A stretch of DNA of 29,062 nt from a virus (lineage: Duplodnaviria > Caudoviricetes), in IMG/VR virus record IMGVR_UViG_3300010964_000009, positions 1 through 29,062 of that record; one strand, 5' to 3'. Under the pieces are notes generated by a model. It had not been told where the DNA came from, did not search any database, and saw only the letters and a list, made by a program, of their open reading frames with translations. Shown here piece by piece: positions 7,061 through 14,228 of this stretch; the first letter of the stretch is position 1; every line of letters starts with the position of its first letter. A program made the position numbers and the translations under genes.

Positions 7061-7082
7061 TTAAGCGAACGGGCAGGATAAC
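7061..7082 (+). repeat. Cassette-boundary dyad, B type (opens array 1)
   Basis: TTAAGCGAAC-GGGCAG-GATAAC; 20 of 21 nt identical to 13104-13124. Confidence 0.8.
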
Positions 7083-7128
7083 GCAATACTTATATGGAAT
7101 ACATTTGAAACATCAAATACTATGAGGA

Positions 7129-7629
7129 GTGAAAAATTTGCGGTATAGAGCTTGTTCTCTTTGCATTATTAAAAGAAGAGAATCAATATTACTTGAACAA
7201 TTCCCGGAAGAAGATGGTATCATTACATTTCGCCCAGTTGGTGGCACGATTGAGTATGGGGAAGATAGCAAATCAGCTGTAATACGAGAAGTAAAAGAGG
7301 AAATTAATATTGATATTATTGAACCAAGATTGATAGGAATTATCGAGCACATCTTCCCTTGGTACGGAGAAATTGGGCATGAATATGATTTTATTTATGA
7401 AGCGAGCTTTAGTCGAATGGATGACTACAACAAGAATGAATTTGAAGGGATTGAGGGGGACAAAAAGTTTATAGCTGTTTGGAAGAGCTTAGATGATTTT
7501 GAAGAAAACCTTCAGTATAAACTTGTTCCTGACGGTCTTTATGAGATGCTTACAAGTGGGCAAATTTCTGATATTAAACATATTAACACAAAAGATTTAT
7601 TGGCTTTTAAAGGGTCTTCATTAACCTAA
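7129..7629 (+). CDS. NUDIX hydrolase (cassette gene)
   Basis: Nudix box GGTIEYGEDSKSAVIREVKEEINI; RBS spacing favours TTG 7138 as the start; stop TAA lies inside the boundary motif. Confidence 0.9.
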   Translation: MKNLRYRACSLCIIKRRESILLEQFPEEDGIITFRPVGGTIEYGEDSKSAVIREVKEEINIDIIEPRLIGIIEHIFPWYGEIGHEYDFIYEASFSRMDDYNKNEFEGIEGDKKFIAVWKSLDDFEENLQYKLVPDGLYEMLTSGQISDIKHINTKDLLAFKGSSLT

Positions 7630-7700
7630 CGGGAAACTATAGTCAATAATGAGATGGCTACCGAGAGGTAGCCCTTTGGTCAAATAACGGGCAGTTTAGC
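7621..7700 (+). repeat. Complete composite junction (A dyad + hairpin + B dyad), attC-like
   Basis: TTAACCTAAC-GGGAAAC-TATAGTC; hairpin GGCTACC-gaga-GGTAGCC 7656-7673; GTCAAATAAC-GGGCAG-TTTAGC. Confidence 0.75.
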
Positions 7701-7795
7701 AGGATACTCCATTAATCTCAAGGTAGCTTATAAAATTGTATTTTGTTACGATAGGTGTAACCAAATTTTGGATGATTTAATGAGGGGGCTATTCT

Positions 7796-8353
7796 ATGTA
7801 CATAGCTATAATTGATGATCAGACATACCTATCTATTCTCCAGCAGACACATTCTCAAGAGTTATTTGATTTAATTGATGGTAGTCGTGATTCTTTAAAA
7901 AGTTGGCTTGAGTTTCCTGATAAAACAATTACAGTTGATGATACAGAGGCCTTTATTCATCGATCTTTAAGTAGATTTGCAAATAATAATGGATACTGGG
8001 CGGGTATCTGGCATAAAGGAGAAATCGTAGGATCAATAGGATATTTATGGATTGATTCGGATTCTAAAAGAACTGAAATAGGTTATTGGTTAGGGTCCAA
8101 ATTTGAAGGTAAAGGTATTATGACTAAGGCCTGTAATACCTTCATAACGCATGCTTTTAATGATTTACATTTAACTAAGGTTGAGATTGGAGCAGCAACT
8201 AATAACATCAAAAGTAGGGCGATACCAGAACGTCTAGGATTTACTCAGGAAGGGGTAATTCGAAACTACGAGTTGCTGCACAATCAATACCTTGACCGAG
8301 TTATATACGGTCTTATTAAAGAGGAATGGCTAGCGCGAAATTCGCTAACCTAA
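7796..8353 (+). CDS. GNAT acetyltransferase, RimJ/RimL family (cassette gene)
   Basis: EIGYWL...GKGIMT...NIKSRAIPERLGFTQEG motifs; stop TAA inside the boundary motif. Confidence 0.92.
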   Translation: MYIAIIDDQTYLSILQQTHSQELFDLIDGSRDSLKSWLEFPDKTITVDDTEAFIHRSLSRFANNNGYWAGIWHKGEIVGSIGYLWIDSDSKRTEIGYWLGSKFEGKGIMTKACNTFITHAFNDLHLTKVEIGAATNNIKSRAIPERLGFTQEGVIRNYELLHNQYLDRVIYGLIKEEWLARNSLT

Positions 8354-8396
8354 CGGGACACGATAGCTTAATAGAGATCAGGAGAAGGCTGTCGAT
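8345..8396 (+). repeat. A dyad with half a hairpin (truncated junction)
   Basis: CTAACCTAAC-GGGACAC-GATAGCTTAA, then AGGCTGTCGAT identical to 13833-13843; no 3' arm or B dyad. Confidence 0.75.
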
Positions 8397-8431
8397 GGAA
8401 TACTGTGTTTTTAAAAGGAGATGAGGTGGTT

Positions 8432-8749
8432 ATGCAAGGCTTAAAAAAAGATGTTGTTATATTACTTGAATCAATTGTTTTTTTGGCTATTGGCTTGTTA
8501 CTTACTGTAAATGTAGCAAGTAAAATTTATGAGAGTTTTGGAATTGAATTTATAGGTAATGTTTGGGTTAATTGGTTCGGAGTTTCTTACTTTCTTTTTG
8601 TATTATACACGGTTATTACTGGACTATTTATTATGAAGAATACTATCTACTTTAAGCAACGTCTGAAATCAAAATTTTTTTGGTTTCTTTTTATTGGTTC
8701 AATTTACATAATCTCTATTCCATTTGTAAAAGGAGAAAACCCATTCTAA
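8432..8749 (+). CDS. Small membrane protein, about 3 TM (cassette gene)
   Basis: GAGGTG RBS before ATG 8432; three hydrophobic segments; AT-rich. Confidence 0.8.
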   Translation: MQGLKKDVVILLESIVFLAIGLLLTVNVASKIYESFGIEFIGNVWVNWFGVSYFLFVLYTVITGLFIMKNTIYFKQRLKSKFFWFLFIGSIYIISIPFVKGENPF

Positions 8750-8819
8750 TTGAACTAACGGACACGATAGTTAAAAACCGGCGGTAGTCTAGGGCAATTT
8801 TTGTCCATGATTGCCGCCG
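8750..8819 (+). repeat. A dyad plus long hairpin closing array 1
   Basis: TTGAACTAAC-GGACAC-GATAGTTAAA right after the stop; stem CGGCGGTAGTC/GATTGCCGCCG (8779-8789/8809-8819). Confidence 0.75.
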
Positions 8820-8887
8820 TTTCTATTATTAGGCTCAGTCTATTATTTATTTAACGAATTTTGGCGCCATTACAATTCAGAATCTGC

Positions 8888-12610: not shown

Positions 12611-13095
12611 TGGATGTGGGATTGAAAGCCTGGGCAGAACTCGTGCAGCGGATATACCCGGATCTACCGATTCTTCGAGATCGTTCCCTTTGGCTGGCAG
12701 GGCAGTTTGATCGTCCGAGCGTGTTCATTGAGACGGATCTTGTCTCTGACAAGGCTCATACGCCGCGGGCAGACCGGATCATCGAGGATGTGGGTTTGGT
12801 TTTTCATTACGACATCGACCGTAGTGTGGTAGAGGAGGCCGGGGAACCGTTCCCTTTGGACTTATCTCCGTTCTTCCTGTACCTTCGCCAGCGGCGGTTC
12901 TGCGTGGTTTCGCAGCGCTTTGGAATCATGATGGTTATTGAAGCCCCGCGTACTCGGCCAATGAATGACCGGATGGAAGTTACGTTTCGGTATTCATACC
13001 TGTTGCATGTTCCGAAACTTGTGATCAAAGATAACGGGCAGCACGTTCAGAAGATTAATGAATTTTTTATTGAGCCAGGTTGTTTTAAAGTTTGA
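12607..13095 (+). CDS. Putative tail terminator/completion protein
   Basis: Last neck gene; FDRPSVFIE motif; C-terminus abuts array 2. Confidence 0.55.
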   Translation: MMDVGLKAWAELVQRIYPDLPILRDRSLWLAGQFDRPSVFIETDLVSDKAHTPRADRIIEDVGLVFHYDIDRSVVEEAGEPFPLDLSPFFLYLRQRRFCVVSQRFGIMMVIEAPRTRPMNDRMEVTFRYSYLLHVPKLVIKDNGQHVQKINEFFIEPGCFKV

Positions 13096-13103
13096 TTCTG
13101 TTG

Positions 13104-13125
13104 TTAAGCTAACGGGCAGGATAAT
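13104..13125 (+). repeat. Cassette-boundary dyad, B type (opens array 2)
   Basis: TTAAGCTAAC-GGGCAG-GATAAT. Confidence 0.8.
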
Positions 13126-13178
13126 TCTAGTAGATATCGAATTTACCTTTGTTAACAATGTTTAATAGGGGGCAGGCT

Positions 13179-13771
13179 ATGCAAGGAAGAGAATTGTATG
13201 TTTATCACATTGTAACTAGGAAGAAGATGGCCTAGGTCAAACAATTAGCTTTGACAAAAACCAAAAAAATACCTTGTATCACTTCTTTTTTGAGAAGGAA
13301 CAGCTGAATTCCAAAAGTGAAGACTTTGTTCAAATCTTACACGGTCATTATACAAATGAAGGCTTGAAGTTTGATAAAGAGAATGCAGATGTAGCTTTTA
13401 AATATGTGGAGCAAACTATCAGAGCTATTAGAGAAGTAATAGTTGAAATGGTTAGACTGCAAGAATATCCTGAATATCCTTCACGATTGTCTTGCTTATA
13501 CGCTGCGAAAAGCTATCAAGACGCTCTGAAATGGAAAGAACTTTTTGATTCTTACCATCGAAGGGTTTTGCAGATAGTGAAACTTCGGGTTATTGGGGCT
13601 ATCTTTGAAGGTGACGGCAGTCTTTTACCAAAGGAAGATGGAATTCCTTTCTCCCGAAAAATTGAACAAGCAAGAGAATATTGGAAAGGTAATATAAATA
13701 ACGAACTTCCTGAGCTGCTGATTAACGGAAAAATCGAAGTTGTAGAAATTATTGATGAATTTTCCGCATAA
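13179..13771 (+). pseudogene. DUF2441-like cassette gene with a 1-nt frameshift near codon 18
   Basis: RBS + ATG 13179 reads [22 protein letters not shown]; the -1 frame continues [19 protein letters not shown] into ORF 13274-13771 ([20 protein letters not shown]...AREYW...PELLING); family recalled from motifs. Confidence 0.7.
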
Positions 13772-13797
13772 TTTCAACAAATGCGCCTGAAAAACCA

Positions 13798-13880
13798 TTG
13801 CGCTAAAGGGAAACGATAGCATCATGACGAACAGGCTGTCGATATTATTGGCTACCTGTTCAACTAACGAGCAGCTTAAC
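13798..13880 (+). repeat. Complete composite junction (A dyad + hairpin + B dyad), attC-like
   Basis: TTGCGCTAAA-GGGAAAC-GATAGC; hairpin GAACAGG...CCTGTTC 13829-13861; TTCAACTAAC-GAGCAG-CTTAAC. Confidence 0.75.
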
Positions 13881-13932
13881 AGAAATTTATATAAACTCAA
13901 GATGTATTGATAAGAAAGGAGTTGAAACGGAG

Positions 13933-14205
13933 ATGAATATGAGAAAGAGTATTAATACCTATTCCATTTTTTTCTCGATGTTATGTTGGGTTGGTTTCTA
14001 TCTGTCAGGATTCACCTCTGTATTGCCTGTTAATAGTCATTTAATAATACTTTGGCTAGCTATATTTTCCTTATTAATGAGTGTCTTTGGACTTGGTGGT
14101 ATTAATAATTGGAAAACAGTTTCAAGCTCGCTAGTCTCAATTCTCTTAAGTGGATTATTGGTAATTGTTGAATTACTACTTTTTGTATTTTCTGAGTATT
14201 TATGA
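13933..14205 (+). CDS. Small 3-TM membrane protein (cassette gene)
   Basis: 90 aa, almost all hydrophobic, AAAGGAG RBS, AT-rich. Confidence 0.8.
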   Translation: MNMRKSINTYSIFFSMLCWVGFYLSGFTSVLPVNSHLIILWLAIFSLLMSVFGLGGINNWKTVSSSLVSILLSGLLVIVELLLFVFSEYL

Positions 14206-14228
14206 TTAAGCTAACGAAGAACAATAAT
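14206..14228 (+). repeat. Degenerate A dyad closing array 2
   Basis: TTAAGCTAAC-GAAGAAC-AATAAT directly after the TGA stop. Confidence 0.6.

Follow-up and report, generated by a model that had tools for sequence, protein, structure and literature searches.

The nine short sites described here lie in a 29,062-nucleotide stretch of a tailed-phage genome (IMG/VR record IMGVR_UViG_3300010964_000009, positions 1 to 29,062; below, the window), where they border five small accessory genes in two slots. The sites are of two types, A after genes and B before them, and they mark points at which the single gene present differs between related phages and chromosomes. That genes are exchanged at these sites we regard as practically certain. 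The full model, which we consider probable, is a cassette system of Bacillales and Paenibacillaceae in which a Xer-like recombinase acts at A and B and arrays are carried within Tn7-type ends; its observed parts are the site anatomy, the module grammar, breakpoints in both cores, an enzyme gene bounded by the sites, and Tn7-like shells. The window itself was identified by a Pfam scan of 24 of its proteins as the head-and-tail region of a contractile-tailed prophage, and the terminase and sheath clusters of this phage have named members from Paenibacillus odorifer and Paenibacillus sp.

Sites, modules and breakpoints

The sites were first noticed in an inspection of the bare sequence, the original prediction, which had read them as borders of mobile cassettes in an integron-like system. 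All nine strings were present once each, on the plus strand, where they had been located. Site-scoring matrices built solely from chromosomal loci in other genomes placed exactly these nine on top. The scores ranged from 10.9 to 36.0, the next plus-strand position scored -0.5, and the two highest minus-strand scores (7.1 and 6.6) were A3 and A2 read in reverse. As 30 block shuffles of the window gave a mean best score of 5.9 and a maximum of 13.8, eight of the sites are far beyond chance, while A5 (10.9), the sole window site inside the shuffle range, is weak by score alone. The predicted dyad with a 6-7 nt core was upheld, with arms of 10 bp each and not of 5: TTVMRCTAAC and GWTAGYTNAA, around the core GGGNNAC in A and GGGCAG in B. 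In four of the five genes the stop codon lies within an A site or immediately ahead of it, as had been stated for all of them; the DUF2441 gene stops 26 nt earlier. The cargo is indeed AT-rich, with a guanine-cytosine (GC) fraction of 0.28-0.36 against 0.45-0.50 in four structural genes, and Pfam recognized the expected NUDIX and GNAT proteins as well as DUF2441, leaving two cargo genes without a family.

Nineteen loci, the window and 18 related phage loci, were compared at the slots. The slot-1 leader was common to 11 of them, each with one to three site-bounded and mostly different modules; both leader and tail were missing from the other eight. At its two borders slot 1 has half-sites that stay with the phage, on one side the first B's left arm and on the other the last A's right arm. 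Only two pairs of phage loci had the same cassette, and in both pairs the following gene differed. An empty site between the slot-1 flanks was seen in none of the 19 loci. Slot 2 had sites in three phage loci, with different cargo in each. Slot 1 was also compared with eight public runs, one of them possibly the source of the window. Copies of the NUDIX unit in three runs matched only over 7068-7622, copies of the GNAT gene stopped at 8368-8373 and continued into different linkers, and the fused unit of cargo 3 (8346-8761) recurred in run X11, continuing there into a B core. In two runs the fixed flanks were joined around 921 and 3227 other bases. Cargo thus changes at the sites, between phage slots, chromosomal arrays and other runs. 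None of the annotated phage records matched slot 1, and when 93 genomes were searched with the DNA of array 1, only parts of genes matched. Distant homologues of the NUDIX gene and cargo 3 (about 70% DNA identity) occur without sites, so these gene families are not always cassettes. A more distant prophage (L015:977-3191) has the same sites upstream of the terminase, which makes a third slot position.

Outside the phage, a strict A-gap-B pattern was estimated to occur in about 210 stretches of GTDB. Taxa were listed for 80 of these, and among the matches listed were Paenibacillus, Cohnella, Pristimantibacillus, an unassigned Paenibacillaceae record and one record labelled Bacillus sp. Site arrays in Paenibacillaceae exceed 20 kb and have the order gene, A site, hairpin linker, B site, gene, with the genes co-oriented; across 264 loci, 2307 sites were on the majority strand and 26 on the opposite one. 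Such long arrays bordering genes in other genomes again place the motif at gene borders. In two genera a 16-nt B pattern was found in 58 of 74 genomes and in 83 of 93, with up to 122 copies per genome, against at most one match per genome for control patterns. Among unique neighbours, A followed by B at short range (571) and B followed by A at gene range (601) dominated. Gene-range B-to-B cases numbered 154, and 68 of the 77 checked were direct gene-to-B junctions. The A-to-B distances peaked at 58-60 and 69-72, separated by about one helical turn, which may reflect phasing on double-stranded DNA. Bacillota genes in general favour fork-wise orientation; in five genomes, 98 of the 109 B sites pointed along the replication fork when a simple antipode rule was applied, and 10 of the 11 exceptions lay less than 200 kb from the antipode. 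In four genomes (G001, G003, G004, G041) several arrays were grouped near the replication terminus, where site orientation flips.

The breakpoints were located with 737 cargo modules, which gave 60 pairs with an identity of 90% or more across their length; these pairs are not independent, and the genomes are related. Neither flank was common in 51 pairs, only the downstream flank in 6, only the upstream flank in 1 and both in 2. Homologues with other neighbours and the same breakpoints had been anticipated, and the window genes behave likewise. Where copies shared their upstream context, the left arm of the site was conserved and the right arm was at background; with a common downstream context it was the right arm that was conserved and the left that was at background. 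This was true of A and of B, and identity between copies switched inside the core of both. The two central A-core bases tracked neither neighbour. Both core types were seen in 8 of 103 upstream contexts and 2 of 104 downstream contexts, so the core type mostly goes with the downstream module. Two module types therefore alternate, a cargo module (B right arm, gene, A left arm) and a linker module (A right arm, hairpin, B left arm), and since the exchanged unit extends from the B right arm to the A left arm, the A-linker-B composite is not carried along with the gene. Recurrent foreign left contexts, with CTACAGGAATGCTAAC or GGCATGGATGGCTAAC at their end, directly adjoin the core at sites of several genomes (L259:1406, L021:5565, L248:4302, L268:15281 and others), and may represent insertion sequences with such sites as their targets.

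A plainer account would take the dyads as operators or terminator-associated repeats, with the swaps made by homologous or microhomology recombination through RecA or annealing proteins of phages. The linkers form strong hairpins (mean -17.5 kcal/mol, compared with -6.9 when shuffled), 165 of 300 have a T-rich end, and it is general knowledge that short common sequences can seed exchange. However, the common sequence is only about 26 bp and degenerate, the breakpoints fall in the core even between unlike cores, the core has a fixed length of 6-7 bp, and the sites bound a tyrosine recombinase gene. The Rfam scan of the window gave no matches, and no Rfam family or paper names the motif. Promoter and terminator scans of both slots gave chance level only. 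We consider this account the least probable of those weighed here, and highly improbable in itself.

A candidate recombinase

No tyrosine recombinase was present among the 24 window proteins scanned, in line with the supposition that the enzyme is encoded elsewhere. Clustering of open reading frames (ORFs) gave a candidate linked to the sites, P0001, a 280-residue protein found in nine array loci and invariably on the array strand, its gene bounded by A and B sites. Its catalytic residues R138, K162, H229, R232, H255 and Y264 were invariant in 20 sequences, and PF00589 matched at 115.8 bits. The predicted structure (predicted local distance difference test, pLDDT, 86.9) had archaeal XerA as its best fold match. 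P0001 remained below the family cut-offs of XerC (186.9 of 335 bits), XerD (183.7 of 330), XerA (182 of 220) and XerS (74.9 of 267). It was colinear with XerD and split against IntI4. We also considered P0001 as an IntI and rejected this: TIGR02249 reached 87.9 bits against a cut-off of 265, aligned in two stretches. The gene occupies the linker position and has its own arm variants. Of 30 P0001 rows, 24 had an A-type site upstream and 18 had a B site downstream (two rows are the same locus; one flankless locus and one fragment were excluded), as compared to none of three host XerC/D-like loci. P0001 is a XerA/XerD-like tyrosine recombinase of a family separate from the enzymes of pdif sites, and a candidate catalyst of the exchange, which would bind and recombine the A and B sites with which its gene is associated in the genomes.

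Relatives of P0001, about 50% identical, were found on plasmids of Sporosarcina, Cytobacillus, Bacillus and other Bacillales. Sites with the same arms and other cores, GGGTGC and GGGGCAG among them, surrounded the gene in four of six plasmid regions and lay beside it within the printed flanks of a fifth; one of the six shows none. In four Bacillales loci (L205, L207, L208, L327) the recombinase is inverted relative to the cassettes, like intI in integrons, and the core lengths are swapped, with 6 bp after genes and 7 bp before. In locus L089 (about 15868-16572) an A site is joined midway into a recombinase gene, at a GTTAA word and with the whole core kept, likely a secondary-site event that truncated the recombinase.

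The presence of P0001 was compared with the number of sites. In the first genus the site median was 7 in genomes with P0001 and 1 in those without (17 and 57 genomes, p 5e-6; p 9e-5 with the seed genomes left out), and across Bacilli sites were present in 8 of 19 genomes with P0001 and 21 of 282 without. Several results weigh against the proposed system and the role given to P0001. In the second genus the medians were 6 and 2 (p 0.01, or 0.08 without the seed genomes), at least 10 sites occurred in 12 of 78 genomes without a P0001 match, and one genome had 77 sites and no such match. With Paenibacillus-trained arms, no site was detected at nine of 23 recombinase loci in the Bacilli sample. Viral contigs yielded no P0001. 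A permuted linker, as expected from a circle of cargo plus linker, was seen in one of 23 comparisons, a tandem duplicate, and the contigs of the probable source run showed no circle or joint; no recombination was observed. The link between P0001 and site number is only moderate overall, strong in one genus and weak in the other. Such patchy co-occurrence fits a mobile enzyme that comes and goes, yet leaves room for a host enzyme. The best matches in the phage collection were at most 35% identical to P0001.

The same cassettes and sites could accordingly be served by host XerC/XerD or another resident tyrosine recombinase, in the manner of pdif modules, P0001 being a passenger. The sites occur in 83 of 93 genomes and the P0001 gene in 15 of the 93, and XerC/D-like genes were present in all five genomes checked. 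On the other hand, the symmetric arms differ from the dif site of B. subtilis (PMC3025954), and dif-like matches in one of the five genomes, a weak test, resemble dif and not the A/B sites. Furthermore, sites lie on both sides of the recombinase gene, and its distant relatives retain the arms. We consider a host enzyme unlikely, if the most serious of the alternatives.

A different possibility is that A-linker-B is a divergent attC, a single-stranded hairpin exchanged on one strand by an IntI-like enzyme. The four arms are ordered as in attC, the stop codon lies within TAAC, unmatched core bases are tolerated, and the replication orientation given above is that of most sedentary integrons in the accessible part of PMC5371416. 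The folding evidence points the other way: an attC-like fold was favoured in 2-3% of 300 composites, the arms showed no pairing covariation, and pairing of A-right with B-left was below shuffles (z -6.5). The composite stays behind when a gene moves, the linker can be replaced by an 840-bp gene, and the two-piece IntI alignment mentioned above falls short of its cut-off. We find the attC explanation very unlikely, though by a hair less so than simple repeats.

We therefore return to a dedicated Xer-like recombinase. The 280-residue enzyme, encoded outside the window, likely binds both symmetric arms as double-stranded DNA and exchanges strands within the 6-7-bp core. Like-with-like events (A with A, B with B) would add or remove a gene plus linker and preserve the alternation, so that a slot with fixed half-sites could replace its cargo and would tend to keep one gene. 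Events between A and B would happen as well, less often and with the linker dropped, and a match at the two central A-core bases would not be required.

Tn7-like carriers and relation to known systems

Tn7 has TGT...ACA termini and a 5-bp duplication, and its repeats are contiguous at one end and spaced at the other. Starting from the fixed flanks of slot 1, we found repeated 18-bp units behind TGT termini in chromosomes. Eighteen loci were examined; ten had paired ends with a perfect 5-bp duplication, and one pair was mismatched. Five of these ten elements had a B site just within one end and an A site just within the other, four of them with one to five cassettes inside and the fifth with an 11.8-kb nested array. 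Three of the ten had no detectable site inside. A 13.6-kb TnsABCDE element at glmS (L313:2057-15615), with restriction-modification-like cargo, had the same ends and a 5-bp duplication. With TGT...ACA ends, repeated sites, the duplication and cognate Tns genes in the lineage, the chromosomal carriers are non-autonomous Tn7-like elements.

The last 50 nt or so of the slot-1 leader match the chromosomal transposon ends weakly (alignment score 58, shuffle maximum 56.5), while the tail matches them clearly, at 101.5 against a shuffle maximum of 62. The tail was present in 10 of the 19 phage loci, and one further locus was cut off. Judging from this resemblance, array 1 is probably an eroded copy of a Tn7-like carrier, and slot 1 probably came that way. 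Short arrays would move within non-autonomous Tn7 ends, presumably by a resident Tn7 transposase, and slot 1 would after its arrival have traded cassettes with the host pool. The flanks of slot 2 showed no Tn7-like ends. Four other viral contigs (L270, L272, L287, L292) have B...A arrays followed by the same Tn7-like end; array capture by phages therefore happened more than once. The carriers share with Tn7 and mini-Tn7 the termini, the contiguous and spaced repeat ends, the 5-bp duplication and a TnsABCDE element beside glmS. Unlike Tn7, the shells hold B...A arrays exchanged by a second, unrelated system, and the ends in the window are eroded.

The central claim of the original prediction, mobile single-gene cassettes between tyrosine-recombinase-type sites with the enzyme elsewhere, survived three attempts to refute it. 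The comparison with integrons stands in part: cassette behaviour and long, co-oriented, variable arrays are seen, while attC-type folding and IntI did not hold when tested. Class 1 and 2 integrons travel in Tn7-family ends, as the arrays do here. Like integrons and attC clusters that have no integron integrase (CALINs), the arrays are long, co-oriented and of single genes in variable order, with stop codons embedded in the sites and similar cargo; there are enzyme-free arrays, the tyrosine recombinase is Xer-related, and some Bacillales plasmid recombinases face away from the cassettes. The differences are several. Neither a folded attC, nor IntI, nor a single promoter-bearing attI was found; in a check for attI and Pc, the recombinase lay between ordinary A and B sites and the promoter scan of the slots was at chance level. 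Breakpoints are at both gene ends, the recombinase is itself an array module, and, while the integron site travels with the upstream gene, the downstream flank was kept here in 8 of 60 pairs. The phylum, moreover, is one reported without complete integrons: the accessible part of a 2016 survey gives Firmicutes as lacking them, with some CALINs, and leaves the reason open (PMC4889954). attC is recognized only as a folded single strand, by an IntI with a dedicated domain, according to the available text of PMC4792948; the part of PMC8876359 available to us held nothing on attC structure. Integrons in phages have been described, with Bacillus, Firmicutes and Paenibacillus unmentioned in the accessible text (PMC9892861).

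The pdif modules of Acinetobacter plasmids have distinct XerC and XerD arms and alternating orientation, as described in the accessible part of PMC13141974. They resemble the present system in their two-arm, short-core sites, two alternating module types, crossover in the core and some tolerance of mismatch. In contrast to pdif, which depends on host enzymes, the arms here are symmetric, all sites point one way, and the alternation is between a 7-bp and a 6-bp core type; a 31-45-bp hairpin forms one of the module types. XerA, XerS and XerH form single-recombinase Xer systems, which act on one or two sites per replicon. One enzyme, a symmetric site and two core types flanking a gene are features shared with these and with exchange between heterospecific cores in Cre/lox; the difference to single-recombinase Xer systems is that tens to more than 100 sites per genome here split accessory DNA into modules. 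In the accessible parts of the literature (subscription papers were outside the scope) no description of such a cassette system was found.

We take this as a cassette system of a new kind inside a category already known, and lean towards regarding it as the Bacillota equivalent of integrons, a third natural class beside integrons and pdif modules with a self-mobile Xer-like enzyme, two cores, double-stranded DNA, chromosomal stocks of hundreds of cassettes and mini-Tn7 export to phages and plasmids. If true, other components occupy the integron niche in Firmicutes, the system accounts for large regions of Paenibacillus chromosomes that vary between strains, and prophages can acquire and alter accessory genes by this route. 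With one defined enzyme and two sites of 26-27 bp, the proposal lends itself to testing in a handful of plasmid assays, and a small recombinase with relaxed core matching could serve genome engineering in Gram-positive hosts.

Features of the window

The positions of the sites, cargo and neighbouring genes are listed in Table 1.

Table 1. Elements of the two slots and adjoining genes in the window.
Feature	Position	Strand	Remarks
Phage Mu-F-like head gene	6108..6938	+	PF04233; left neighbour of slot 1, outside the system
Slot-1 fixed leader, probable eroded Tn7-like end (contiguous-repeat)	7000..7060	+	in 11/19 phage loci
Site B1	7061..7086	+	10-6-10, core GGGCAG; left arm phage-fixed, right arm moves with cassette
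Cargo 1, NUDIX protein	7129..7629	+	PF00293; 97% copies in other runs cover 7068-7622 only
Site A1	7621..7647	+	10-7-10, core GGGAAAC; left arm contains cargo 1 stop codon
Hairpin linker	7648..7678	+	belongs to a family frequent in chromosomal arrays
Site B2	7679..7704	+	left arm in part decayed
Cargo 2, RimL-like GNAT acetyltransferase	7796..8353	+	PF13302; chromosomal twin in L068 88.7%, flanks differ
Site A2	8345..8371	+	core GGGACAC
Truncated linker joined to cargo 3	8372..8404	+	without second hairpin half and B site
Cargo 3, small hydrophobic protein	8405..8749	+	no Pfam family; likely start ATG 8432
Site A3	8750..8775	+	A-type, 6-nt core GGACAC
Slot-1 fixed tail, eroded Tn7-like end (spaced-repeat)	8776..8925	+	terminal bases not intact
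XkdF-type prohead protease	8942..10168	+	PF14550; right neighbour of slot 1, outside the system
Site B3	13104..13129	+	slot 2 start
Cargo 4, DUF2441 gene	13179..13771	+	PF10386; 79% chromosomal twin behind B site in L054
Site A4	13798..13824	+	core GGGAAAC
Hairpin linker, slot 2	13825..13858	+	composite 87.5% like one in slot 1 of phage locus L004
Site B4	13859..13884	+	core GAGCAG
Cargo 5, 90-aa hydrophobic protein	13933..14205	+	no Pfam family; 89% chromosomal twin in L248
Site A5, degenerate	14206..14232	+	right arm phage-fixed in 3 loci

Cargo 4 has a frameshift near its 5' end relative to its chromosomal twin, so the DUF2441 gene may be inactive. The twin of cargo 5 ends in a B-type core. 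RNA runs contained a fraction of at most 0.17 of the words. Immediately upstream of the terminase region, positions 1-1358 hold an IS3-family-like insertion sequence with helix-turn-helix (HTH) and rve ORFs. Two more low-GC accessory ORFs, at 1763-2467 on the minus strand and at 16427-16669, have no Pfam family and no A or B sites, and represent other insertion spots of the window phage.

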